A stretch of DNA of 32,000 bases from Trichodesmium erythraeum IMS101 (GCF_000014265.1 NC_008312.1:3450001-3482000), one strand, 5' to 3'; counted from the stretch's first letter, positions 9,206 through 32,000 are shown. A program made the numbers and translations. Notes: generated by a model from the sequence alone, not told the origin.

Positions 9206-11368
9206 CTAGGGCGAGTGCGATGACAACATCACTAAAATTTTAGGTAATAAATTACTTGGGATTTTAGAAAGAGCTAAATTTTGCCCTTGTATTCCATACT
9301 TATTGTAGAAGGTACGAATAATTCTGAGAATATAATTTACACTAACTTGTTCTTCTTGCATTTTGTTAACATTAGTCTGGGGTTGATCACCATAACCTAG
9401 TAAGTGATGATCTAAAGCTGCTTCTAAATTACTGATTTGACTTTTTTTGTCTAATGTGGTATTGCTAATTGTTGCTATTTGATAGTAGGCAAGTCCAATA
9501 TTATGATGAGTGGCCAATAGGTCGAAAGTAAGTTGAGAAGGAGAAAAATGTTGAGCGATACTTACAGCTTGAGAATAAGCAGCGATCGCTTCATGGAAAA
9601 TTTGAGCGCGAATTTGATTTTCCTCAAATTGGTTAGCCAGATGCCAATAGGCAGTACCTAAGTTATTTTGTGTCGCAGCATAAGCAAGAGGAAAAGCTTC
9701 TCGAGTACGATACTTCAATGCGAGTAAATAGGCATCAATAGCTTTGAGAATTAGATTCTCTGATACTTCTGTCTGAAATTGAGCTAAGTTCCAATAAGCT
9801 ATACCTAAATTATTTTGAATCATTGCATAGTTAATTGGTTCAATTTCTGGCGTAAAGTAATCTATAGCTTCCTCATAAGTAGAAATTGCTCCTTGTAAAT
9901 GCTCAATATCTTGAGTATATTGAGCCAAGTTCCAATAAGCTGCTCCTAAATTATTGAGAGTAGAAGCATAATCTCTAGGAGCAGCTACTTTATCTAGATA
10001 AAAGATAGCTTCCTGATAAGCTCTCAGGGCTCTTTCCCAATTCTGTTGTGGTTGCTGATAAGTAGCTAAATCAGCGTAAGCTAAACCTAAGTTTTTTTGT
10101 AATCTAGCATAAGTGTATTTTTGAAACGAATTAATTTCCCCCATAGCCACTTGATAAAGAACGATACTTCGCTCCAAATAAACTAATAAATCAGACTTGC
10201 TAGACTTGATTTGACGAGATAACATCCAGTATAAAGTACCAAGGTCATTAAAAATGTCTTGAATAGGAATTTGGTATCTAGAAAACTGACTCACATTTTC
10301 TGTATCTTCAGATGTCAACTCAATAACCATCTCATAAGCACGAATGGCAATAATTAGACTTTGCTCTGAGACTTCCCCGGCTAAAATGAGATCGCGATAA
10401 AAATCCCCCAATGTTTGATAAGCTATAACTAACTCTGGAGATGGATATTGATTAGTTTTCAACTCCTGAATTTCTTTAAGGATTTGAAACTGTTGCTTTT
10501 TCAGGGATGTTTTTACCTCTTGAGACTTTCTCGAAATTTCTGCCCATACTAAACTTGCTAGTTCAACTAATTCTAATTCTGGCTGTGGAAGATTTTTTTT
10601 GTGTGGACTTAAGTTAATAGTTAACTCTGACAGTTTTTCTATAGCCGGGGAAAGAAAATAACCTTGAGAATTTTTTGATTCGTAAGATTTTTGTTCGAGT
10701 GCCATCAATGGCCTTGCTATGTTTATGGAAGGTTGGCTAGTTATTGATGGCAAGAAAGATTGAGGTTTTACCTTGTTTGAAAATAATGATTTTTTTTGTC
10801 TAGGAGTTACTGGGGTAGGTTCTCCCTCAAATTCAAATATACCTGTGTGCCAATTCCAAAATTCTGGTGCTGACTGTTTGATAGTATTTAGCCAAGGTTT
10901 AGTCACCCAAAGTAAGATACTAGATTCTAATTTGGATAAATTTTTTTCGATTTTTTTGAGATTGCTAATAAATGACCATTGAACTGCTGAAGGTTGTTTG
11001 GTTAAGTTCTCTACTCCAATAATTTGAAATCCCAAGATTTGATATTCTTCTATTTTTTTAAATTCAGGATTAAGTGCAAACCATTGATTAATCTGAGTTA
11101 CTGGATTAGGATTACTTAGGTTTAAATTTAGAGTAACAAATAATATATTTTGATTGTTATTTATTTTGTTTTTTGATTGTTCTTCCCTGTCATCAATAGT
11201 ATTTGTTAGGTCGGCTTCTAACTTTTCAACTAAGCTAATTTTTAGCTGTTGGTGATCACATACAGCTATAAAAATTTGGCGACGTAGATTTAAGGATAGA
11301 GCTTGTTTTAAGCGTTGATAGATTTGCCGATTCAATCTAGAAATTGTTGGGGCATGAATGTCTATCAC
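9206..11368 (-). CDS. Tetratricopeptide-repeat (TPR) protein with an N-terminal region of about 300 aa and unknown function
   Basis: 720 aa. The C-terminal half contains at least 6 repeats of the type NNLGAAYWNLAQY / NNLGIAYWNLAQF / NNLGTAYWHLA / KNLGLAYADLATY, each followed by A..AY.EA, which is the TPR signature. The codon at 11368 is GTG, so the exact start is uncertain. Confidence 0.8.
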   Translation of the reverse strand: MIDIHAPTISRLNRQIYQRLKQALSLNLRRQIFIAVCDHQQLKISLVEKLEADLTNTIDDREEQSKNKINNNQNILFVTLNLNLSNPNPVTQINQWFALNPEFKKIEEYQILGFQIIGVENLTKQPSAVQWSFISNLKKIEKNLSKLESSILLWVTKPWLNTIKQSAPEFWNWHTGIFEFEGEPTPVTPRQKKSLFSNKVKPQSFLPSITSQPSINIARPLMALEQKSYESKNSQGYFLSPAIEKLSELTINLSPHKKNLPQPELELVELASLVWAEISRKSQEVKTSLKKQQFQILKEIQELKTNQYPSPELVIAYQTLGDFYRDLILAGEVSEQSLIIAIRAYEMVIELTSEDTENVSQFSRYQIPIQDIFNDLGTLYWMLSRQIKSSKSDLLVYLERSIVLYQVAMGEINSFQKYTYARLQKNLGLAYADLATYQQPQQNWERALRAYQEAIFYLDKVAAPRDYASTLNNLGAAYWNLAQYTQDIEHLQGAISTYEEAIDYFTPEIEPINYAMIQNNLGIAYWNLAQFQTEVSENLILKAIDAYLLALKYRTREAFPLAYAATQNNLGTAYWHLANQFEENQIRAQIFHEAIAAYSQAVSIAQHFSPSQLTFDLLATHHNIGLAYYQIATISNTTLDKKSQISNLEAALDHHLLGYGDQPQTNVNKMQEEQVSVNYILRIIRTFYNKYGIQGQNLALSKIPSNLLPKILVMLSSHSP

Positions 11369-17630: not shown

Positions 17631-17837
17631 ATGGAATTTGAGAATTATCAGAGTAGATCTGTTTTAGACCGGGTTACCGCTAGCTTTTTTGTAGCCTTTA
17701 CTATGTTCATAGTTAGTTACACTGCAACACGGGTTTATCTAAGCCACTCATCGGAAATAAATATTCAAACACGATCAGATGTCATACCCCATCCGGGTTC
17801 GTTGTGGAGCGACTTGGGTAAGGGACTTGGGCAGTAA
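17631..17837 (+). CDS. 68-aa hypothetical single-pass membrane protein
   Basis: The track ORF starts at a TTG at 17622. An ATG at 17631 sits 10 nt after a strong AGGAGG (17615-17620), giving MEFENYQSRSVLDRVTASFFVAFTMFIVSYTATRVYL... with one TM helix. A decayed paralogous copy lies about 870 bp downstream. Confidence 0.5.
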   Translation: MEFENYQSRSVLDRVTASFFVAFTMFIVSYTATRVYLSHSSEINIQTRSDVIPHPGSLWSDLGKGLGQ

Positions 17838-17865
17838 ATAACTTGAATATTGCAAAAAGTCTTTG

Positions 17866-17921
17866 AAATAGAATAGGCGATCGCTTTTTTTTGGTAATAG
17901 GAGCGATCGCCTATTCTATTT
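17866..17921. repeat. Perfect 20-bp inverted repeat centred on two HIP1 sites (possible terminator or palindromic element)
   Basis: AAATAGAATAGGCGATCGCT (17866-17885) is the exact reverse complement of AGCGATCGCCTATTCTATTT (17902-17921), with a 16-nt loop. It lies 28 nt after the stop of the 68-aa ORF. No canonical U-tract follows the stem. Confidence 0.5.
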
Positions 17922-18506: not shown

Positions 18507-18710
18507 ATGCAATTTCATAGTTCTCAAAAGATATTTATTTTCAAGTATTTTATGGCCAGCTTTCCCGTAGCTTTTGTAATTTTTGTATGAAGTTATACAT
18601 CAACACGGGCAACAAGGATTTATTAAAATAAGTTATCACAGGTAAACTTTCAGGTAGGATCGGATGTGAAACCCTATCCAGCTTCGTTGTGGATAGACTT
18701 GAGTAGTAAA
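18507..18710 (+). pseudogene. Decayed duplicate of the 17631..17837 small-protein gene
   Basis: Nucleotide similarity to copy 1 is visible by eye, for example ...CAACACGGG..., ...GGATGTGAAACCCTATCCAGCTTCGTTGTGGA... versus ...AGATGTCATACCCCATCCGGGTTCGTTGTGGA..., and ...TAAATAA(A/C)TTGAATATT..AAAAAGTCTTTGA.ATAG. Premature stops interrupt the frame (MQFHSSQKIFIFKYFMASFPVAFVIFV*). It is followed by its own HIP1 hairpin, AGGCGATCGCT 18747-18757 / AGCGATCGCCT 18774-18784. Confidence 0.5.
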
Positions 18711-18867
18711 TAAATTGAATATTAAAAAAAGTCTTTGAGATAGTTGAGGCGATCGCTTTTTTTGGTGATAGGTAGCGATCGCCTAGATCATCATTCTATC
18801 TATACAAATTTTTTGAATATAAAACCAGTGGAAAAGACTAGGACTGACGCACCATTATAAAAAACTA

Positions 18868-23877: not shown

Positions 23878-26800
23878 TTAGAGAGTTCTCCCGCCATCGC
23901 AGACAAGACGAAAACCAGAATTGATGATGTGGACGTCGCGCCTAAGACCGTCGGTGCGAACCGCAGAACGGCAAATATCAGGACTGTTGTTCCAAGAACC
24001 GCCCCGCAGCGGTGAGCGTTGTTTGTCTCCATTTAGCCAAGTGCTGCCGTCTATAGGAGCATTTCGATAATTATCATGCCATTCATCACCACACCATTCC
24101 CAAACGTTTCCGTGCATATCATATAACCCAAAACCATTGGCTGAAAACTGACCTACAGGAGTTGTTTGCTTTCTATGTTCTCCTTTTGGCTCATCCGCAT
24201 AAGTCACTGACGCATTATAATTAGCTAACTCTCCTGTGATCGTTTCTCCACAGCTAAAAGGTGGATAACTTTCTCCCTTTCCTAGGCCTAAAGCTTTTCT
24301 CTGTGCTCGACAAGCATATTCCCATTCCGCTTCACTGGGTAGTCTATAATTCCTTCCTGTTAATTTCGATAGTCTTTTACAAAATTCTACAGCTTTGTAC
24401 CAACTCACGGCCTCAACTGGTCTCTGCCATCTATCTATACCTTGGTATGGTTTTTTGAAATAAGATGGCTCTGGGTTTAGGTCTAATTCTACTTTTAAGT
24501 CTGTTCGAGAAGCGATCGCTCTCCACTGTCCTTGAGTAACCGGATATTTGCCCATAAAAAAGGGAGAAACAGTCACATTATGCTGGGGGCGTTCTGTATC
24601 TCTGTTAAGTTTTTCACTTTCAGGAGAACCCATGGTAAAAGTACCACCAAGAATAGCTACCATTTCTAGTTCTAACTGTTGCGCAATAGTTTCCCTAAAA
24701 TATCGAGCAAACTTAGTATCTTGCTTAATAATTTTTCCTCCTCGGTCAACTGTTGGCGTTGTATATTCATAGTGAAAAACCTCAAGGTCGGAGGGAAATG
24801 AAACCCCTTCTCTTTTTAAACTCCCAACAAAAGTTTTCCTGACAGAACACAATACACGAAAACCAGTATTGTTGAAACGGCTGTAGCTCATATTGATCTC
24901 AGAGCAATACGCAGAAAGGGACTTATCAGGACGGCTGCTCCAAGAACCTCCGCGGAGGGGTGAACGGTTTTTATTTCCATCTAGCCAAACACTTCCATCT
25001 ACAGGAGCACCATTATAGTTTTCATGCCATTCATCACCACACCACTCCCTTACGTTTCCGTGCATATCATATAACCCAAAACCATTGGCTGAAAATTTAC
25101 CTACAGGAGTTGTTTGCTCTCTATATTCTCCTTTTGGTTCATCGGCATAAGTCACTGACGCATCATAATTAGCTAGCTCTCCTGTGATCGTTTCTCCACA
25201 GCTAAAAGGTGGATAACTTGCTCCCTTTCCTAGGTCTAAAACTTCTGTCTCTGCTCGACAAGCATATTCCCATTCTGCTTCACTGGGTAGTCTATAATTC
25301 CTTCCTGTTAGTTTTGATAGTCTTTGACAAAATTCTACAGCTTCGTAGCAATTCACGTTTTCAACTGGTCTCTGCCATCTATCTATACCTTGGTATGGTT
25401 CTTTAAAAGTAGATGGCTCTGGGTTTAGGTCTAACTCTACTTTTAAGTCGGTTCGGGAAGCGATCGCTCTCCACTGTCCTTGAGTAACCGGATATTTCCC
25501 CATAAAAAAGGGAGAAACAGTCACATTATGTTGGGGGCGTTCTCTATCCGTACTACCTTTTTCACTTTCAGGAGAACCCATAGTAAAAGTACCACCAGGA
25601 ATAGCCACCATTTCCAAATTAATACCATCCGCAAGAAATTCCCTGAAATAAGGAGCGATATAAGCTGTTGTGTTGATCACTTCCCCCCGTCGGTTAACTG
25701 TGGGCGTTTTATAAGCAAAAACTTGATTTTCTTTAGGAAGTTTTTTCCCCTTATAAGCAAAAACTTGATTTTCTAACTTAGGAAGTTTTTTCCCCTCAAC
25801 ATTCTCAGAAATTTCATTTTGAGACCTTTCTATTTCCCGAGCAAAATCAGCATAAGGTCCTCCTAATCTTTTTAAAACTTTAGTTGCAACCGTAGCAAAA
25901 TATTTAACATCTAAATCTAAAACATTCCTCTCAGTTTTTAACCTTTCCAACTCATCAGGTTTTTTCAATAAAGCCAAAAATTCTCGAGGACTATTCCCCA
26001 GTCTATTAGCAAAATCCTGAGAAATCATAGTAATAATTTCCTGAGCATTCTTTCTCGGACTATCCTTCAGCAAAATATCTCTAATTTCCTCATCAATAAA
26101 CTGATATTGAACCTGATCAAAATCAATATCAGGAGTAATCAAAGATTGAGGTTTAAGAATATTACCGAGAAATACCTCAGCCACATGAACCTGTTGAGAA
26201 TCTCTCAGAAAATTCTTTTGAATTGACCGTACAATAGGTAAATTAATCACTGGTGCAGCAGAAAGATACTCAGCTAACTTTTGTGCTGTTTTTGAAGAAC
26301 TCATCTTAAAATTATACAGCCGTTTTTCACCTGTTAAATTTGCTCTTTCTTGGTCTGAGACTGTTTGATTCTGGTCTAGTTTTAATAAAGAAGAAAAAAC
26401 AAAACCACCAGCACCAATAATTCCTTTTCCTACCACCATTTCGCTCCAAGTTTCTATTAGTTCTGGTTCCAAACTAAATACAGGAACTTTGATTCCAGTT
26501 TGTAAATTATCATTACTCCCAAAAAAAACTTCCCTAACCAATAAATTAGAATTAGGAACCCTAGGCTGTAAACAATCCAATTGTACCATTGCCCCTAAAC
26601 TCAGAGCCGTTCTTAACCACAAACGTCGAGGTAAAACTTGGATAATTGCCACAATATTGTACTTTCCCCAATTTTTTAAGAGAGAAAAAAACTGACCATT
26701 ACGCCAAATCTTGCTAACACAATCACTAACTACTAAAATCAAACGACGACCAGTAGGATCGATAAGTTTTTGAGGATAAAAAAGATGATGAGAATAAGGA

Positions 26801-27468
26801 TTTTGTTTAATCCCTTGTTTAAGGCAAATTTTTCCCTTTGTGTCTGTCAAAATTCTCCAAGTTTTTACATTCCGAAAAATACCATAACGTTTGAATAATT
26901 GTTGTAATTCTTGAATATTTTTATCCCAAAAAATCATAGAATCACTTTGGTCAACCACTAAAGCCAAATCAAACTGAAGTTCCAGAGGATATTTGAGAAT
27001 AGGAACACAAAGTCCTTCTAATTGAGCAATATTTTCAACTGTAGCTTTTTCATCTAATAAAACTGCTTTACCATAAGAAATATATTCCATTAGAGGACGA
27101 AAAGCGCTAGCAATTTTCAAAGGGTGACGCAGTGAAGAAACATCAGGAGCTTTTATGGATAAATCACTTTTATTAGAAGAAGTAGAATTAGTTTTAGGAG
27201 TAACTTCAGCGTAGGAATTATTTTCAGGAATTTTCGGATAAAAACTATCTTGAAATTGTGTAGTAGAAGATCTTGTAGAAGATATTGTAGTATTTACTTT
27301 TTCACCTGTAGTTATTTGATTTTTAGAGGGTATTTTTTTATCAACTGAAGAGGGATATTGACGCCGCATTGCCAACCAAAGATTTTCGGCAATTTCTGTA
27401 CCTGTTAGTTTTAACTCTTTTTCTAATAGTCTAATTAAATTATCAAATTTATCAGTTTTTTTAGTCAT
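23878..27468 (-). CDS. vWA-domain protein (SAV_2336-like N-terminal helix + vWA) fused to two tandem FGE-sulfatase (SUMF1/PvdO-type) domains
   Basis: 1196 aa with ATG start. The N-terminus reads TEIAENLWLAMRR and is followed by an S/T-rich linker. The vWA region reads LLDEKATVENIAQ...FDLALVVDQSDSMIFW...RRLILVVSDCVSKIW...VAIIQVLPRRLW, with MIDAS DxSxS = DQSDS at 26938-26952. Two FGE-sulfatase modules (aa ~586-876 and ~902-1192) carry MVAIPGGTFTMGSP, RPQHNVTVSPFFMGKYPVTQGQW, YRLPSEAEWEYACRA, GLYDMHGNV(W/R)EWC and RGGSW. Confidence 0.85.
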   Translation of the reverse strand: MTKKTDKFDNLIRLLEKELKLTGTEIAENLWLAMRRQYPSSVDKKIPSKNQITTGEKVNTTISSTRSSTTQFQDSFYPKIPENNSYAEVTPKTNSTSSNKSDLSIKAPDVSSLRHPLKIASAFRPLMEYISYGKAVLLDEKATVENIAQLEGLCVPILKYPLELQFDLALVVDQSDSMIFWDKNIQELQQLFKRYGIFRNVKTWRILTDTKGKICLKQGIKQNPYSHHLFYPQKLIDPTGRRLILVVSDCVSKIWRNGQFFSLLKNWGKYNIVAIIQVLPRRLWLRTALSLGAMVQLDCLQPRVPNSNLLVREVFFGSNDNLQTGIKVPVFSLEPELIETWSEMVVGKGIIGAGGFVFSSLLKLDQNQTVSDQERANLTGEKRLYNFKMSSSKTAQKLAEYLSAAPVINLPIVRSIQKNFLRDSQQVHVAEVFLGNILKPQSLITPDIDFDQVQYQFIDEEIRDILLKDSPRKNAQEIITMISQDFANRLGNSPREFLALLKKPDELERLKTERNVLDLDVKYFATVATKVLKRLGGPYADFAREIERSQNEISENVEGKKLPKLENQVFAYKGKKLPKENQVFAYKTPTVNRRGEVINTTAYIAPYFREFLADGINLEMVAIPGGTFTMGSPESEKGSTDRERPQHNVTVSPFFMGKYPVTQGQWRAIASRTDLKVELDLNPEPSTFKEPYQGIDRWQRPVENVNCYEAVEFCQRLSKLTGRNYRLPSEAEWEYACRAETEVLDLGKGASYPPFSCGETITGELANYDASVTYADEPKGEYREQTTPVGKFSANGFGLYDMHGNVREWCGDEWHENYNGAPVDGSVWLDGNKNRSPLRGGSWSSRPDKSLSAYCSEINMSYSRFNNTGFRVLCSVRKTFVGSLKREGVSFPSDLEVFHYEYTTPTVDRGGKIIKQDTKFARYFRETIAQQLELEMVAILGGTFTMGSPESEKLNRDTERPQHNVTVSPFFMGKYPVTQGQWRAIASRTDLKVELDLNPEPSYFKKPYQGIDRWQRPVEAVSWYKAVEFCKRLSKLTGRNYRLPSEAEWEYACRAQRKALGLGKGESYPPFSCGETITGELANYNASVTYADEPKGEHRKQTTPVGQFSANGFGLYDMHGNVWEWCGDEWHDNYRNAPIDGSTWLNGDKQRSPLRGGSWNNSPDICRSAVRTDGLRRDVHIINSGFRLVCDGGRTL
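23893..25713 (-). repeat. In-frame 948-bp (316-codon) tandem duplication of the FGE-sulfatase module inside the vWA gene
   Basis: Module 1 spans 24841-25713 and module 2 spans 23893-24765. Long identical runs include the 41-residue QHNVTVSPFFMGKYPVTQGQWRAIASRTDLKVELDLNPEPS. The antisense track ORFs at 24261 and 25209 (MDNFLPFLGLKL / MDNLLPFLGLKL) are exactly 948 bp apart. Confidence 0.9.
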
Positions 27469-27479
27469 ATTTATTAAAC

Positions 27480-27593
27480 GTAGGTTGGGCTAACGTACGA
27501 CAACCAACATAACTAAATTATATCAATAAAATACACTCAACATTACCAAAATTATCCTGATGTTTGACTTCAGTGTCGTTCTGCCCAACCTAC
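27480..27593. repeat. 11-bp inverted repeat bracketing most of the moxR-vWA intergenic spacer
   Basis: GTAGGTTGGGC (27480-27490) and GCCCAACCTAC (27583-27593) are exact reverse complements, 92 nt apart. They lie inside the 144-bp gap between the two genes. Confidence 0.6.
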
Positions 27594-27612
27594 ATTACTA
27601 TTGACATTGTTA

Positions 27613-28758
27613 TCAAAATTCATCCGTAGTTGATAAACCCTTCAATAATAAAGCTTGTAAGTCATCAGTAAAAGCTTCTGGACTAAGGTTATTGCGAATA
27701 TAAATAGCATTCAATAACTGATCCGTTGCCCGTTCCTGTTCGTCCTTTTCCAAAAAAGCTTCAATAAGTTCCTCAGTTGTTGTCTTCAAACTTTCACCTT
27801 GTTCCTCATCCTGAAAATGAGCCTTAATAATAGTTTGAAGAGCTGCCGCACCCGGGTCTGGCATTCTTATTCGGAGACAGCGGCGCACAAAAGCCGGAGG
27901 AAAGTCCCGTTCCCCATTACTAGTCATAATTACAATAGGAAAACTAGAACAATGAACTCTTCCCCCTATAATAGAAGCTTTGATACCCGCATCTTCCGTC
28001 CGCACTTTTACTTTTGTTGGTTGATCATTTTCAGAACTTTTTTCAGACCTATCAGCCCAACGGACCAACTCAGGAATTTCAAACCTTCCCTCCTCAAATA
28101 AGTGAAGCAAATCATTCGGCAAATTAATATCACTTTTATCTATCTCATCAATTAATAATACTCTCGGATATAAAGAAGGTAAAAAAGCTGTTCCTACCGG
28201 GCCCAAAGTGACATATTGGCCAATATTTTGTAAGTTCTCCCTATTTAACTGAGAATCTTGTAACCGAGCGATCGCATCATAACGATAAAGTCCATCGACC
28301 AAATTAGAACGAGCTGTAATGGGCCAATTCAATACGGGCCCTAATTTTAATTCCTGTGCGATCGCATAAGCCAAGGAAGTTTTACCCGAACCAGGGTTTC
28401 CTGTGACCAAAAGAGGCCGTCGTAAATATATTGCAGCATTTACGGCATCAACAACATTAACAAGTGGTTTTTGACCATCATCTTCCTCAGTTATTTCTGA
28501 GGAATAAACACGAAATTTTTCACCCTTTTCTCTACCCCTTTTATTATCATCAGACTCAGCTAAAATTTGAATATTTTGCCAATCTTTTTCCAGTTGTTTT
28601 TTTAATTCAGAATCTTTTTCTATCTCTTGAAATTTTCGCCAAGGGGGAGGATCAGGAAGGTCAGCAATATTAACATTATGTGTATTTCCATCACCATAGA
28701 AAAAAAGCCAGGCTTGTTGATTTTCCATCATATTATTTTGGGGATAAATTTTTACCAC
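27613..28758 (-). CDS. MoxR-like AAA+ ATPase (partner of the vWA protein)
   Basis: 381 aa. Walker A GNPGSGKTSLA (28378-28401 covers GNPGSGKT) and Walker B VLLIDEIDK (28135-28161). There is an N-terminal extension with PDPPPWRKF. The start is a GTG at 28758, preceded by AAGGAG with a 6-nt spacer. The gene begins 37 bp after the stop of the upstream gene. Confidence 0.8.
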   Translation of the reverse strand: MVKIYPQNNMMENQQAWLFFYGDGNTHNVNIADLPDPPPWRKFQEIEKDSELKKQLEKDWQNIQILAESDDNKRGREKGEKFRVYSSEITEEDDGQKPLVNVVDAVNAAIYLRRPLLVTGNPGSGKTSLAYAIAQELKLGPVLNWPITARSNLVDGLYRYDAIARLQDSQLNRENLQNIGQYVTLGPVGTAFLPSLYPRVLLIDEIDKSDINLPNDLLHLFEEGRFEIPELVRWADRSEKSSENDQPTKVKVRTEDAGIKASIIGGRVHCSSFPIVIMTSNGERDFPPAFVRRCLRIRMPDPGAAALQTIIKAHFQDEEQGESLKTTTEELIEAFLEKDEQERATDQLLNAIYIRNNLSPEAFTDDLQALLLKGLSTTDEF

Positions 28759-28795
28759 TGCTTTCTCCTTTTTTAAGAACTAATTATTTAGTTGA

Positions 28796-30325
28796 TTAAA
28801 ATTGATTAAAAGCAGGAATGTTGATTGGTTTGCGGTCATTACAATCACATAAAATTCTTAAATGGTAACCTAAAGATTCTGTTTTAGAACTATCAGCAAT
28901 AGCCAGGTCTGTTTTACGAATATCAAAAATTTGTGTATATAATTGATTAACATCTGACAAATTTTCTAATTCTATTAAATGATTGAGCTTATCTATTAAA
29001 GATTGATAATGGGAATCATTTAAATTATCCCTTTGATTTTTCCTTTTTATCCATAGACATAAAGGAACTCCCTTTTCTAAAATAACTTCAAATAAATTAA
29101 ATGCTTTATTATTTCCTTTAGGTAAACCACAGGATATTTTCAGGATAATTTTATCCTCTAATTTATTTCCTAGCTGTTTTCTTTTTTGTGGGTTAGACAA
29201 GAATTCATTTAATTTATCTTCCACTTCAAAAGCTAAAATATTATTTGATATAACTGGTTTTTTCTCCATAATTTTCCAGTTTTTTTTGCAACAGTTTAGC
29301 CAACTAGTTTTACCTGGTTGTAATCGTTCTAAAGAGCGTAAAATTACAGGATATTCTTCACAAATAGCTTTTTGTTTTGCTTTTAAAGCACTAGGAATTT
29401 TAAACTCAAAATCTTTAATAAAAAGTTCTCTCTTTAAAAATAGCTCAAGTTTTAAATCATAAGTTTTATTTTGTTGCACTAGTTTACGCAAATATACCTC
29501 TTGAACCTGCTCAATGAATTTATAAATAATATTAGGAATTTGCTTTTCTGAATATCCATTTTCCTCAAAATCTTCTTTCTTCAGCTCAACTTGAATATTT
29601 TTAGTATGACCCCAGTTTTCAATAAACTCACCTTGAACATTAAATGTTTTTTTATGATTTTTAATCTGACTTCCCATAGGAAAAATAGTTATCAAAAGAT
29701 AGCTTTGGAGATCAGATGGTTTGTCTTTTTTATCAGGAATATTTATATCTGAGCAATTTGTTTCTATCCATTTTCTCAATCTTTGCTTGAGATAATCTCT
29801 AATATCTTCAGCATTCAAAATTTTAACTAAATATTGTTCTACAAAATCTATGAACTTTGGATCATAGTAAAAATAAAAACTATCTCTATCACTAAAAAGC
29901 AAACCATTACCATTTTTTTCAGTTTTTTCAGTTTCTTCAGTTAACTCTAATAAATGCTCTTCTAATTTATCTATATTTTCAAAGTCCCCAAAAAAAATCC
30001 CAAAATTTTGGTTTTCTGAAAAAATTTTTTTTAGTAAAAAAATAAGAGTAGAAAGTTGTGAATATGTTTGGTAAAGTTCTTCAATTAATGGATAGTCCTC
30101 ACTAACAATTTTAACAAAATCAACAATAAGTTCTGTATTATTTAGCTCAATGATTAAATTAATCAACCTTGTATGATAGGTATCTCCTTTAATTTTATTA
30201 TAAAAATTAGCTCCAAATTTCTCTGGATATTCAGAAAATATACTTGTCAGTTTATCCTCACTTAATACCTTTTCAATCTCTTCACGAAATTTGATTCTTT
30301 GCTTATCAGTAAATTTCATTTGCAA
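28796..30325 (-). CDS. EAD-like (Death-like effector-associated domain) N-terminal module fused to a VMAP-like (vWA-MoxR-associated protein) body
   Basis: 509 aa. The first ~77 aa are about 85-90% identical to the upstream 85-aa ORFs. The remainder is K/E/I/L-rich with no catalytic motif I recognise. The segment LELFLKRELFIKDFEFKIP...EEYPVILRSLERL resembles, from memory, the VMAP C-terminal domain core. Its position directly upstream of the MoxR and vWA genes fits the family. The track start at 30325 is TTG; an ATG lies 6 nt downstream at 30319. Confidence 0.6.
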   Translation of the reverse strand: MQMKFTDKQRIKFREEIEKVLSEDKLTSIFSEYPEKFGANFYNKIKGDTYHTRLINLIIELNNTELIVDFVKIVSEDYPLIEELYQTYSQLSTLIFLLKKIFSENQNFGIFFGDFENIDKLEEHLLELTEETEKTEKNGNGLLFSDRDSFYFYYDPKFIDFVEQYLVKILNAEDIRDYLKQRLRKWIETNCSDINIPDKKDKPSDLQSYLLITIFPMGSQIKNHKKTFNVQGEFIENWGHTKNIQVELKKEDFEENGYSEKQIPNIIYKFIEQVQEVYLRKLVQQNKTYDLKLELFLKRELFIKDFEFKIPSALKAKQKAICEEYPVILRSLERLQPGKTSWLNCCKKNWKIMEKKPVISNNILAFEVEDKLNEFLSNPQKRKQLGNKLEDKIILKISCGLPKGNNKAFNLFEVILEKGVPLCLWIKRKNQRDNLNDSHYQSLIDKLNHLIELENLSDVNQLYTQIFDIRKTDLAIADSSKTESLGYHLRILCDCNDRKPINIPAFNQF

Positions 30326-30354
30326 TGTACTTACATTACTATTTTATCTACTAT

Positions 30355-30612
30355 TTATAAATCTTGAGCAAAATTATGATACTCATACCTAACAACTTTA
30401 ATAAAATCAAAAATAAGTTCTCTATTATTTAGCTCAATGATTAAATTAATCAACCTTGTACGATAGTCACCTCCTGGAATTTGATTATAAAAATTAGCTC
30501 CAAATTTCTCTGGATATTCAGAAAATATACTTGTCAGTTTATCCTCACTTAATACCCTTTCAATCTCTTCACGAAATTTGATTCTTTGCTTATCAGTAAA
30601 TTTCATTTGCAA
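30355..30612 (-). CDS. Stand-alone EAD-like module, array unit A (allele ...GANFYNQIPGGDY...)
   Basis: 85-codon ORF. The track start is TTG and the ATG 6 nt downstream (30606) would give 83 aa. The helical pattern FTDKQRIKFREEIERVLSEDKLTSIF...RTRLINLIIELNNRELIFDFIKVV fits the EAD1-like L..Q...L...L...F....L..ml....L.......(loop)....v..Li.....g....L layout. Confidence 0.6.
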   Translation of the reverse strand: MQMKFTDKQRIKFREEIERVLSEDKLTSIFSEYPEKFGANFYNQIPGGDYRTRLINLIIELNNRELIFDFIKVVRYEYHNFAQDL

Positions 30613-30641
30613 TGTACTTACATTACTATTTTATCTACTAT

Positions 30642-30899
30642 TTATAAATCTTGAGCAAAATTATGATACTCATACCTAACAACTTTAATAAAATCAAAAA
30701 TAAGTTCTCTATTATTTAGCTCAATGATTAAATTAATCAACCTTGTACGATAGTTATCTCCAGAAATTTGATTATAAAAATTATCTCCAAATTTCTCTGG
30801 ATATTCAGAAAATATACTTGTCAGTTTATCCTCACTTAATACCCTTTCAATCTCTTCACGAAATTTGATTCTTTGCTTATCAGTAAATTTCATTTGCAA
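30642..30899 (-). CDS. Stand-alone EAD-like module, array unit B (allele ...GDNFYNQISGDNY...)
   Basis: Starts exactly 287 bp from unit A. It is identical to unit A except for the 11-nt patch at 30754-30764 and the A/D codon at 30784. Confidence 0.6.
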   Translation of the reverse strand: MQMKFTDKQRIKFREEIERVLSEDKLTSIFSEYPEKFGDNFYNQISGDNYRTRLINLIIELNNRELIFDFIKVVRYEYHNFAQDL

Positions 30900-30928
30900 T
30901 GTACTTACATTACTATTTTATCTACTAT

Positions 30929-31186
30929 TTATAAATCTTGAGCAAAATTATGATACTCATACCTAACAACTTTAATAAAATCAAAAATAAGTTCTCTATT
31001 ATTTAGCTCAATGATTAAATTAATCAACCTTGTACGATAGTCACCTCCTGGAATTTGATTATAAAAATTATCTCCAAATTTCTCTGGATATTCAGAAAAT
31101 ATACTTGTCAGTTTATCCTCACTTAATACCCTTTCAATCTCTTCACGAAATTTGATTCTTTGCTTATCAGTAAATTTCATTTGCAA
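30929..31186 (-). CDS. Stand-alone EAD-like module, array unit C (allele ...GDNFYNQIPGGDY...)
   Basis: Starts exactly 287 bp from unit B, with the same ORF structure. Confidence 0.6.
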   Translation of the reverse strand: MQMKFTDKQRIKFREEIERVLSEDKLTSIFSEYPEKFGDNFYNQIPGGDYRTRLINLIIELNNRELIFDFIKVVRYEYHNFAQDL

Positions 31187-31215
31187 TGTACTTACATTAC
31201 TATTTTATCTACTAT

Positions 31216-31473
31216 TTATAAATCTTGAGCAAAATTATGATACTCATACCTAACAACTTTAATAAAATCAAAAATAAGTTCTCTATTATTGAGCTCAATG
31301 ATTAAATTAATCAACCTTGTACGATAGTCACCTCCTGGAATTTGATTATAAAAATTATCTCCAAATTTCTCTGGATATTCAGAAAATATACTTGTCAGTT
31401 TATCCTCACTTAATACCCTTTCAATCTCTTCACGAAATTTGATTCTTTGCTTATCAGTAAATTTCATTTGCAA
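31216..31473 (-). CDS. Stand-alone EAD-like module, array unit D (protein identical to unit C)
   Basis: Starts exactly 287 bp from unit C. It differs from unit C only by a synonymous T-to-G change at 31291. Confidence 0.6.
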   Translation of the reverse strand: MQMKFTDKQRIKFREEIERVLSEDKLTSIFSEYPEKFGDNFYNQIPGGDYRTRLINLIIELNNRELIFDFIKVVRYEYHNFAQDL

Positions 31474-31502
31474 TGTACTTACATTACTATTTTATCTACT
31501 AT

Positions 31503-31760
31503 TTATAAATCTTGAGCAAAATTATGATACTCATACCTAACAACTTTAATAAAATCAAAAATAAGTTCTCTATTATTGAGCTCAATGATTAAATTAATCA
31601 ACCTTGTACGATAGTTATTTCCAGAAATTTGATTATAAAAATTATCTCCAAATTTCTCTGGATATTCAGAAAATATACTTGTCAGTTTATCCTCACTTAA
31701 TACCCTTTCAATCTCTTCACGAAATTTGATTCTTTGCTTATCAGTAAATTTCATTTGCAA
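31503..31760 (-). CDS. Stand-alone EAD-like module, array unit E (allele ...GDNFYNQISGNNY...)
   Basis: Starts exactly 287 bp from unit D. The patch at 31615-31625 carries a third allele. Confidence 0.6.
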   Translation of the reverse strand: MQMKFTDKQRIKFREEIERVLSEDKLTSIFSEYPEKFGDNFYNQISGNNYRTRLINLIIELNNRELIFDFIKVVRYEYHNFAQDL

Positions 31761-31789
31761 TGTACTTACATTACTATTTTATCTACTAT

Positions 31790-32000
31790 TTATAAATCTT
31801 GAGCAAAATTATGATACTCATACCTAACAACTTTAATAAAATCAAAAATAAGTTCTCTATTATTTAGCTCAATGATTAAATTAATCAACCTTGTACGATA
31901 GTCACCTCCTGGAATTTGATTATAAAAATTATCTCCAAATTTCTCTGGATATTCAGAAAATATACTTGTCAGTTTATCCTCACTTAATACCCTTTCAATC
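31790..32000 (-). CDS. Stand-alone EAD-like module, array unit F (5' end cut by the window edge)
   Basis: The stop codon at 31790-31792 is exactly 287 bp from unit E's. The sequence through 32000 matches unit C, and the ORF continues past the window end. Confidence 0.55.
   Translation of the reverse strand, partial: IERVLSEDKLTSIFSEYPEKFGDNFYNQIPGGDYRTRLINLIIELNNRELIFDFIKVVRYEYHNFAQDL

Follow-up and report, generated by a model that had tools for sequence, protein, structure and literature searches.

Gene organisation of the locus

A stretch of 32,000 nucleotides from Trichodesmium erythraeum IMS101 (GCF_000014265.1, NC_008312.1:3450001-3482000) was analysed, which is called the window in the following; positions are counted from its first letter. 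The subject of this work is a tandem array of small genes in its last part, each of which encodes a free-standing effector-associated domain (EAD; solo EAD), together with the neighbouring EAD-VMAP gene. The units of the array are named A to F, and codons are numbered along the solo gene. The features are:

28796..30325, minus strand: EAD-VMAP gene, Tery_2230 (Pfam PF20015, 2.3e-92; PF20028, 3.6e-15; weak EAD6 match)
30355..30606, minus strand: solo EAD gene, unit A, Tery_2231 (open reading frame (ORF) list and exact-sequence look-up; WP_044136703, ABG51460); Ala37/PGGD/t
30642..30893, minus strand: solo EAD gene, unit B, Tery_2232 (ORF list, exact-sequence look-up); Asp37/SGDN/t
30929..31180, minus strand: solo EAD gene, unit C, Tery_2233 (ORF list, exact-sequence look-up); Asp37/PGGD/t
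31216..31467, minus strand: solo EAD gene, unit D, Tery_2234 (ORF list, exact-sequence look-up); Asp37/PGGD/g
31503..31754, minus strand: solo EAD gene, unit E, Tery_2235 (ORF list, exact-sequence look-up); Asp37/SGNN/g
31790..32000, minus strand: unit F, cut by the end of the window; Asp37/PGGD/t; putative C-terminal EAD of Tery_2236
30320..30354, minus strand: 35-bp spacer from stop codon to next ATG, repeated between every unit
30466..30477, minus strand: patch of unit A, codons 44-47 (unit comparison, codon table)
30753-30764, 31040-31051, 31327-31338, 31614-31625 and 31901-31912, minus strand: equivalent patches of the other units; in the VMAP copy 30179-30190
30478..30495, minus strand: 18-nt block, codons 38-43, AAT TTT TAT AAT CAA ATT (codon table of copies)
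30496..30498, minus strand: codon 37, Ala (GCT) in unit A, Asp (GAT) in units B-F; Ala in the VMAP copy, 30209-30211
27613..28758, minus strand: MoxR-type AAA+ ATPase (Pfam AAA, AAA_5)
23878..27468, minus strand: vWA-type component of 1196 aa (NCBIfam NF041121, SAV_2336_NTERM, 1.9e-114; PF03781, 2.3e-113, in two stretches)

Each unit consists of a 252-nt gene and a 35-nt spacer on the minus strand, and the genes are complete and co-oriented. An initial annotation, made from the sequence of the window, had described them as array units, and they are specified here as separate genes and not as repeats inside one gene. The product of unit A comprises 83 aa if translated from the ATG and 85 aa from a TTG at 30612. 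Exact protein look-ups name Tery_2230-2235 and Tery_2237 of T. erythraeum IMS101. Tery_2230 starts with an N-terminal EAD (30092-30319; patch KGDT, Ala37), followed by VMAP-M12 and VMAP-C.

The EAD6 model (PF19958) matched the product of unit B with 20.4 bits (E = 5.9e-4, profile positions 2-71 of 75) and the EAD of the VMAP copy with 17.7 bits. These scores lie under the Pfam gathering score of 27 bits. The same model was matched by 15 of 27 relatives (E ≤ 0.01), the best at 4.3e-7. Since an exhaustive profile search yielded only 60 representative relatives at 50% identity, the family seems to be a small, divergent EAD6 subfamily, and we read the sub-threshold score in this sense rather than as a sign of non-membership. 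The close relatives retrieved were almost all from Trichodesmium.

The vWA-type protein carries the SAV_2336_NTERM match and a DQSDS MIDAS-like motif in its N-terminal part, followed by two FGE-sulfatase (FGS) domains. Because no Pfam vWA model matched the N-terminal region, the assignment is based on the NF041121 match and the DQSDS motif. By its gene content the locus is a VMAP ternary system (vWA-MoxR subsystem 1, a vWA-MoxR-VMAP conflict operon) of the kind defined by Kaur et al. 2020 (PMC7159879). An RNA gene or a regulatory repeat was also considered for the array and was rejected, since Rfam gave no matches at E ≤ 0.1 in 27000-32000, terminator-like sites were absent from the array and its plus strand holds no ORF of at least 60 aa. 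Promoter-like matches in the array occurred only at chance level. With no terminators between them, the solo genes are probably co-transcribed with the operon.

Differences between the units of the array

Tandem Repeats Finder reported a period of 287 bp with 6.6 copies, 97% matches and 0 indels at 30102-32000. For comparison the units were cut at 287 bp and aligned base by base with unit B as reference. Unit A differs from unit B at 30468, 30470, 30475, 30477 and 30497 (plus strand), unit C at 31042, 31044, 31049 and 31051, unit D at the equivalent four patch sites and at 31291, unit E at 31578 and 31619, and the partial unit F at the four patch sites. Altogether there are 7 variable sites per 287 positions, 5 of which fall inside 10 nt. 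The initial annotation had described otherwise identical units of about 287 bp with differences confined to this patch, and the comparison confirms this to the base. Translation of the patches likewise reproduced the three alleles it had listed (QIPGGDY, QISGDNY and QISGNNY) as well as KIKGDTY of the VMAP-fused copy. Only two other sites are polymorphic, in agreement with the earlier description: a synonymous T/G site in Leu59 (CTA/CTC) with G in units D and E (31291, 31578), and the Asp/Ala site of codon 37 at 30497, where G is found in unit A only among the units. Ala37 is also present in the VMAP-fused copy (30210), a point that had been missed before.

In 200,000 permutations at least 5 of the 7 sites fell into some 10-nt span in only 10 cases, and the clustering of sites is thus far beyond chance. 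Counted as events, the array holds about four changes, namely the swap of a four-base haplotype, a single point change within the patch and two outside it. Two of four events inside 10 nt have a probability of about 0.33, so that the clustering is unremarkable when events are counted. Both patch types (P, S) are found with both states of the synonymous site (t, g), which makes all four combinations. The mosaic of markers noted earlier is therefore real, and it requires a breakpoint or a recurrent mutation within the intervening 38 nt.

Related loci and origin of the array

Related contigs, which include environmental Trichodesmium contigs and more distant loci, are designated by L numbers. A solo EAD identical to that of unit C is encoded on seven environmental contigs. 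The gene order on the related contigs is a gene for a 311-aa protein, a CHAT gene with C-terminal EAD, the solo EAD gene or genes, EAD-VMAP, MoxR and vWA-2xFGS. On contig L002 this part reads 311-aa gene (Tery_2237 equivalent), 465-aa CHAT protease (PF12770), 35-bp spacer, solo EAD, 35-bp spacer and EAD-VMAP. The last 74 residues of the L002 CHAT protein are identical to the solo EAD, i.e. after residue 9. The DNA differences between the solo gene and the L002 CHAT-EAD are confined to the first 27 nt, and towards the L002 VMAP-EAD the first 41 nt are identical and the remainder has diverged. According to these matches the solo gene is composed of a VMAP-type 5′ end and a CHAT-type remainder, with the junction at nt 28-41. 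In the more distant loci L009-L012 the CHAT-EAD stands next to the EAD-VMAP gene with no solo gene between them. Solo EAD genes were seen repeatedly, on three or more haplotype backgrounds and also at a second locus (L002, L013, L020). The array would have been born when the partner EADs of CHAT and VMAP underwent unequal crossing-over, and it would then have expanded, its near-identity being kept by recent amplification and gene conversion.

In L002, L013, L024 and L025 the CHAT-EAD gene lies directly upstream, after the 311-aa gene and ahead of the EAD genes. A single locus tag, Tery_2236, stands between Tery_2235 and the 311-aa protein Tery_2237. This and the synteny make it most likely that unit F is the C-terminal EAD of the CHAT gene Tery_2236, of which the window shows only the last 69 residues. 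Seven EAD copies would then be present, one CHAT-fused, five free-standing and one VMAP-fused. The gene for the 311-aa protein was found directly upstream of CHAT in every locus examined, including the distant L010 (L002 7595-8530). Its product has no Pfam, NCBIfam or PADLOC match and may be an unrecognised component of the VMAP system.

Some related contigs differ from this organisation. In L014-L019 (e.g. L014 2279-4134) the CHAT body is lost and a 90-aa EAD-only ORF (SGDN) precedes EAD-VMAP, and L008 (8709-11027) has a VMAP gene shortened to 295 aa and a frameshift that splits MoxR. Judged from these contigs, the VMAP system is decaying in some Trichodesmium lineages. At a second, paralogous Trichodesmium locus (L020 and L021, 1716-6443) the genes encode a NucA-type endonuclease, a CHAT protein with an SGSS EAD, a protein that contains EAD1 and has the same EAD at its end (DGKT), and a solo EAD with HGNT; one more EAD gene is present. 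The three EADs readable at the loop all carry different alleles, and the fourth gene is cut before the patch. In a single scan of genome contigs, made to extend the IMS101 array, only Trichodesmium MAG_R02 was returned. Two further candidates for EAD arrays from the exhaustive profile search, P0082 with 13 matched stretches and P0103 with 6, were discarded, as by eye they do not resemble EADs but look like an FN3-like and a low-complexity repeat protein.

Short-read assemblies handle the locus poorly. L024 (12120-12634) joins the CHAT-EAD straight to a VMAP gene with a solo-type PGGD EAD, in L026 (7355-10024) an 889-aa CHAT-VMAP fusion is called, and runs of N break the locus in L001 (about 9860-9995), L025 and L027 (100-N gaps in the latter two). 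Because the array collapses in such assemblies, its copy number and some of the "fusion" architectures in public metagenome-assembled genomes are unreliable.

Homogenisation of the copies and proposed exchange of patch alleles

The VMAP-EAD of IMS101 is 82% identical to the solo EADs of the same strain, whereas the orthologous VMAP-EADs of wild T. erythraeum-like contigs (L001, L002, L003, L005, L006) share only 51-57% identity with them. Thus solo/CHAT-type sequence has overwritten the VMAP copy of the IMS101 lineage to about nt 218 of the gene. Within nt 1-218 it differs from unit C at 13 sites, 7 of them in nt 124-146 (P ~0.004). Ala37 is common to unit A and this adjacent VMAP copy. The units are identical even at synonymous sites apart from Leu59, and neighbouring EAD copies are each other's closest relatives. 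By this pattern we regard the locus as a tandem gene array under concerted evolution. The homogenisation by recombination or gene conversion proposed in the initial annotation is upheld by the identical synonymous sites, the contrast of 82% with 51-57% and the four marker combinations. In strain GBRTRLIN201, with 99.99% identity across 8.6 kb, an Ala37/PGGD unit stands beside a KGDT VMAP-EAD. As these markers recur in an independent strain, they are not sequencing errors.

The patch alleles themselves are old. That of unit B (TCT GGA GAT AAC) is nucleotide-identical in the diverged VMAP-EADs of L001, L002, L003, L005 and L006, and it is one synonymous base away from the patches of CHAT-type EADs of other Trichodesmium (L004, L008, L014) and of L013. 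PGGD (CCA GGA GGT GAC) is carried by the T. erythraeum CHAT-EAD and by the common solo EAD; it also occurs, with different codons, in the CHAT-EAD of L010, which is only 59% identical. Since the unit B patch is identical to that of old paralogues, the four linked sites that distinguish unit B from unit C represent one haplotype and not four mutations. Most Trichodesmium EAD copies have the 18-nt block of codons 38-43 without change, among them all candidate donors of SGDN or PGGD, and a few copies are changed at codon 41 or 42. Towards an L002-type donor the nearest differences are codon 37 and the first base of codon 49, which limits an imported tract to at most 33 nt.

From these data we propose that the cluster of differences goes back to a single haplotype, either imported or retained, with an exchange tract of ≤33 nt that would be bounded upstream by the 18-nt block, a likely anchor for short conversion, and would end downstream before codon 49. 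Unit E combines the unit B patch, altered by one G-to-A change (coding strand; plus strand 31619), with the synonymous marker of unit D. A single G-to-A step would have created SGNN, and at least one further exchange would have taken place between the patch and the synonymous site. Going by these comparisons, short-tract gene conversion would explain the clustering better than diversifying selection acting in place.

Structure and variability of the loop

An AlphaFold2 run on an alignment of 27 sequences gave a model with a mean pLDDT of 94.3 and a pTM of 0.84. In this model the 83-aa domain is small and all-alpha, with five helices (5-18, 21-30, 32-35, 48-61, 65-75), one of them only four residues long. 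Residue 37 and the patch (44-47) sit in a well-ordered loop (36-47) between helices 3 and 4 (32-35 and 48-61), in line with the inter-helix loop that had been predicted before. Foldseek against the PDB returned no match below E = 1. The best TM-scores to CARDs were 0.56 (2dbh), 0.53 (2p1h) and 0.51 (6n1h), all with E-values above 4, and are weakly consistent with a Death-like adaptor. A profile of the EAD compared with PDB sequences hit annexin V repeats at a borderline level (E about 0.004-0.01, query positions 16-62), with no stretch passing alone and no support from the Foldseek search. The annexin repeat is a five-helix unit of about 70 residues.

In the non-redundant set the column entropies at positions 37, 44, 46 and 47 are 2.19, 2.44, 2.08 and 2.25, and invariant columns (F35, F39, Y40, N41, I43, G45) stand beside them. 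The alternation of invariant hydrophobic with variable polar residues suggests that the loop is exposed. Residues 44-47 show 19 haplotypes in 46 sequences, the highest number for any four-residue window (next windows 18, 18 and 17), and position 37 is the most substituted in the family. By a parsimony count on 26 DNA sequences, non-synonymous changes amount to 9.0 per codon in the patch versus 3.7 elsewhere. Positions 2, 6, 66 and 74 evolve as fast as the patch.

Putative function of the solo EADs

EADs were predicted to bridge effectors or signalling enzymes to the core by like-with-like binding, and EAD6 was assigned to the recruitment of signalling components including signalling peptidases (Kaur et al. 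2020; PMC7159879). Applied to the locus, VMAP would recruit the CHAT protease by way of the EAD that both possess, and the loop would form part of the EAD-EAD contact surface. The solo genes would supply free adaptors with CHAT-like (PGGD) or wild-VMAP-like (SGDN/SGNN) loops. Such adaptor-only isoforms could assemble together with the VMAP-CHAT complex, bridge it or cap it, and in this way set the threshold of protease activation. A role of the loop in binding specificity is a plausible prediction. The fuller hypothesis that solo EADs act as regulators and that the loop sets partner preference is put forward tentatively, as less likely than not.

Evaluation of alternative explanations

Taken as a whole, the evolutionary account together with the functional hypothesis is in our opinion the best explanation and a reasonably probable one. 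The observations and the evolutionary part, considered without the function, are held with considerably more confidence. Several points weigh against this explanation. No SGDN donor is left in IMS101 within the window, and by exact look-ups the SGDN and SGNN solo alleles are found only in IMS101. Exact look-ups of the SGNN protein, made to extend the array, had nothing on record; a scan of JGI metagenomes for the SGDN and SGNN solo alleles with a degenerate DNA pattern gave no match, and a protein-based metagenome scan for them gave the distant loci L009-L012 only. A tract of 33 nt is short for gene conversion, and import of a patch is indistinguishable from retention of an ancestral one. In the KGDT allele of the VMAP copy some codons (AAA, ACC, CAT) are unique among the copies, so that some new substitution did occur in the patch. 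The patches of CHAT- and VMAP-EADs pair by no simple rule (PGGD-KGDT, PGGD-SGDN, PGGD-PGND). The ratio of non-synonymous to synonymous change (dN/dS), a crude parsimony count whose single-tree assumption is violated by recombination, is 0.71 for the four patch codons versus 0.50 for the rest (Fisher P = 0.52) and hence not above 1. Finally, expression of the solo genes and contact of the loop with a partner are predictions made from the genes.

The initial annotation had considered the variation as maintained or diversifying, that is, positive or balancing selection would make and keep loop variation for binding specificity in units that are otherwise homogenised. Such diversification in place is unlikely. 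It would account for a patch with more haplotypes than any other four-residue window of the family, for hypervariable positions (37, 44, 46, 47) amid invariant neighbours, for the concentration of differences in the VMAP copy around the patch (7 of 13 in 23 nt, P ~0.004, some codons unique) and for the usual difference at the patch between partner EADs of one locus. Nevertheless SGDN and PGGD are common base for base to old paralogues, and the only demonstrably new change in the array is the G-to-A in unit E. Positions 2, 6, 66 and 74 vary equally, the clustering of events is not significant and the excess of patch dN/dS is not either. Of the selection test suggested with the earlier claim, fast evolution was thus borne out and a ratio over 1 was not; on these sequence data fast evolution of the loop is established and positive selection is not. 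The view of diversifying variation is replaced here by exchange of old alleles, since the unit B patch is base-identical to diverged paralogues. A neutral by-product of a young array from unequal crossing-over, with patch differences as functionless leftovers of exchange in a tolerant loop, is doubtful when taken by itself, but about as likely as the functional hypothesis. Identity at synonymous sites suggests very recent units, the residues found in the patch (S, P, G, D, N, T, K) all form turns or N-caps, the patch does not stand out from a family dN/dS of about 0.5, and the locus decays in other Trichodesmium (CHAT loss in L014-L019; truncation and frameshift in L008). On the other hand the five solo ORFs are all intact with unchanged spacers, solo EADs have recurred in the several backgrounds and the second locus named above, and the variable positions lie within the most conserved, confidently modelled motif and not in a disordered linker.

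The alleles or their order could also stem from assembly or sequencing errors in this 1.9-kb run of near-identical units. We consider this very improbable, although short-read assemblies do collapse or break the locus (L024, L026, L001, L025, L027) and the SGDN and SGNN solo alleles come from IMS101 only. The variant bases copy natural alleles exactly, which random errors would not, and IMS101 is a finished genome in which single reads can link markers 287 nt apart. As to the refutation by assembly errors that the initial annotation had envisaged, Ala37/PGGD and KGDT are confirmed by GBRTRLIN201, whereas this independent support does not extend to SGDN and SGNN. Least probable of all, and hardly credible, is targeted hypermutation of the loop by a diversity-generating retroelement (DGR) or a similar system. 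Adenine is present in one allele at 6 of 7 variable sites on the coding strand, and the class that includes the FGS domains has been reported as a DGR target (bioRxiv 10.1101/2023.09.22.558884). However, an adenine excess is expected in an AT-rich genome, C/T and T/A changes are present, and the 10-nt patch is far shorter than a DGR variable region. A Pfam scan of the 17 largest ORFs of the window found no reverse transcriptase, no template repeat was found, and the alleles are exactly common to paralogues, which is unlike random mutagenesis. The array was rejected as a DGR target for these reasons.

Other features of the window

The two FGE-sulfatase domains of the vWA-type protein (23884-24183 and 24832-25131, minus strand) are 90-95% identical on the DNA level over about 500 nt. 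Identity is 65-74% in the last ~200 nt around 'RGGSW NN...', the position of the DGR variable region in this fold class; neither a reverse transcriptase nor a template repeat for these domains was seen in the window. A 90-nt direct repeat with 82% identity, located at 17824-17913 and 18696-18785, flanks the region upstream of a gene for a D-Ala-D-Ala dipeptidase. Two GCGATCGC palindromes of the HIP1 type known from cyanobacteria lie in each copy.

Comparison with known systems

EAD pairs, VMAP systems and concerted evolution are already known. The EADs studied here resemble the EAD6 pairs of PMC7159879 in being small all-helical domains with one copy on VMAP and one on a CHAT protein encoded by a neighbouring gene, and also in that neighbouring copies are closest relatives of each other. 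They differ by five EAD-only genes in tandem between the fused copies and by scores under the Pfam cut-off (20.4 bits vs 27). In PMC7159879 neither EAD-only genes nor arrays of EAD genes were found to be mentioned, and two papers of the Aravind group yielded no description of EAD-only gene arrays; a literature search found no paper mentioning Tery_2230-2236. Like-with-like coupling of effectors by EADs is a prediction, and the locus provides a natural experiment on it, with seven copies of one adaptor domain that are identical except for four loop residues, one fused to a protease, one fused to VMAP and five free. Three loop alleles suffice to ask whether the loop sets partner choice, and a few small genes suffice to ask whether adaptor-only proteins regulate protease activation. 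A practical lesson is that short-read assemblies turn such a locus into false direct junctions or CHAT-VMAP fusions.

In the pilE/pilS system of Neisseria, short variable segments with conserved flanks form gene-conversion mosaics of pre-existing alleles. Here, too, a short variable segment with conserved flanks appears to be moved between copies. The array differs in having no store of silent cassettes, no dedicated recombination-initiating element and three alleles only, and it shows no sign of programmed or frequent switching.

CARD-only and PYD-only genes (COP/CARD16, INCA/CARD17, ICEBERG/CARD18, POP1) adjoin caspase-1 or ASC. The CARD-only proteins are local duplicates of the caspase CARD, 53-97% identical to it, and one or two residue changes decide between co-polymerisation and filament capping (PMC3775265, PMC7830601). 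Likewise, the solo EAD genes are adaptor-only genes that seem to have arisen by local duplication beside a gene for a caspase-type protease. The locus would thus show a bacterial route to adaptor-only genes, unequal crossing-over of partner domains, in parallel to the CARD-only genes by caspase-1. The CARD- and PYD-only proteins are eukaryotic, have a six-helix Death-fold and a function shown by experiment, whereas the EAD copies are near-identical and known from their genes alone, and the fold likeness of the solo EAD to CARD is weak (TM 0.5-0.56, E-value above 4). One may go further and see in the array a bacterial counterpart of the inflammasome CARD-only and PYD-only regulators, with residues 37, 44, 46 and 47 choosing between extending, bridging and capping, but we regard this analogy as rather improbable. 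If true, copy number and loop allele would tune protease activation, and perhaps cell death, in a bloom-forming filamentous cyanobacterium.

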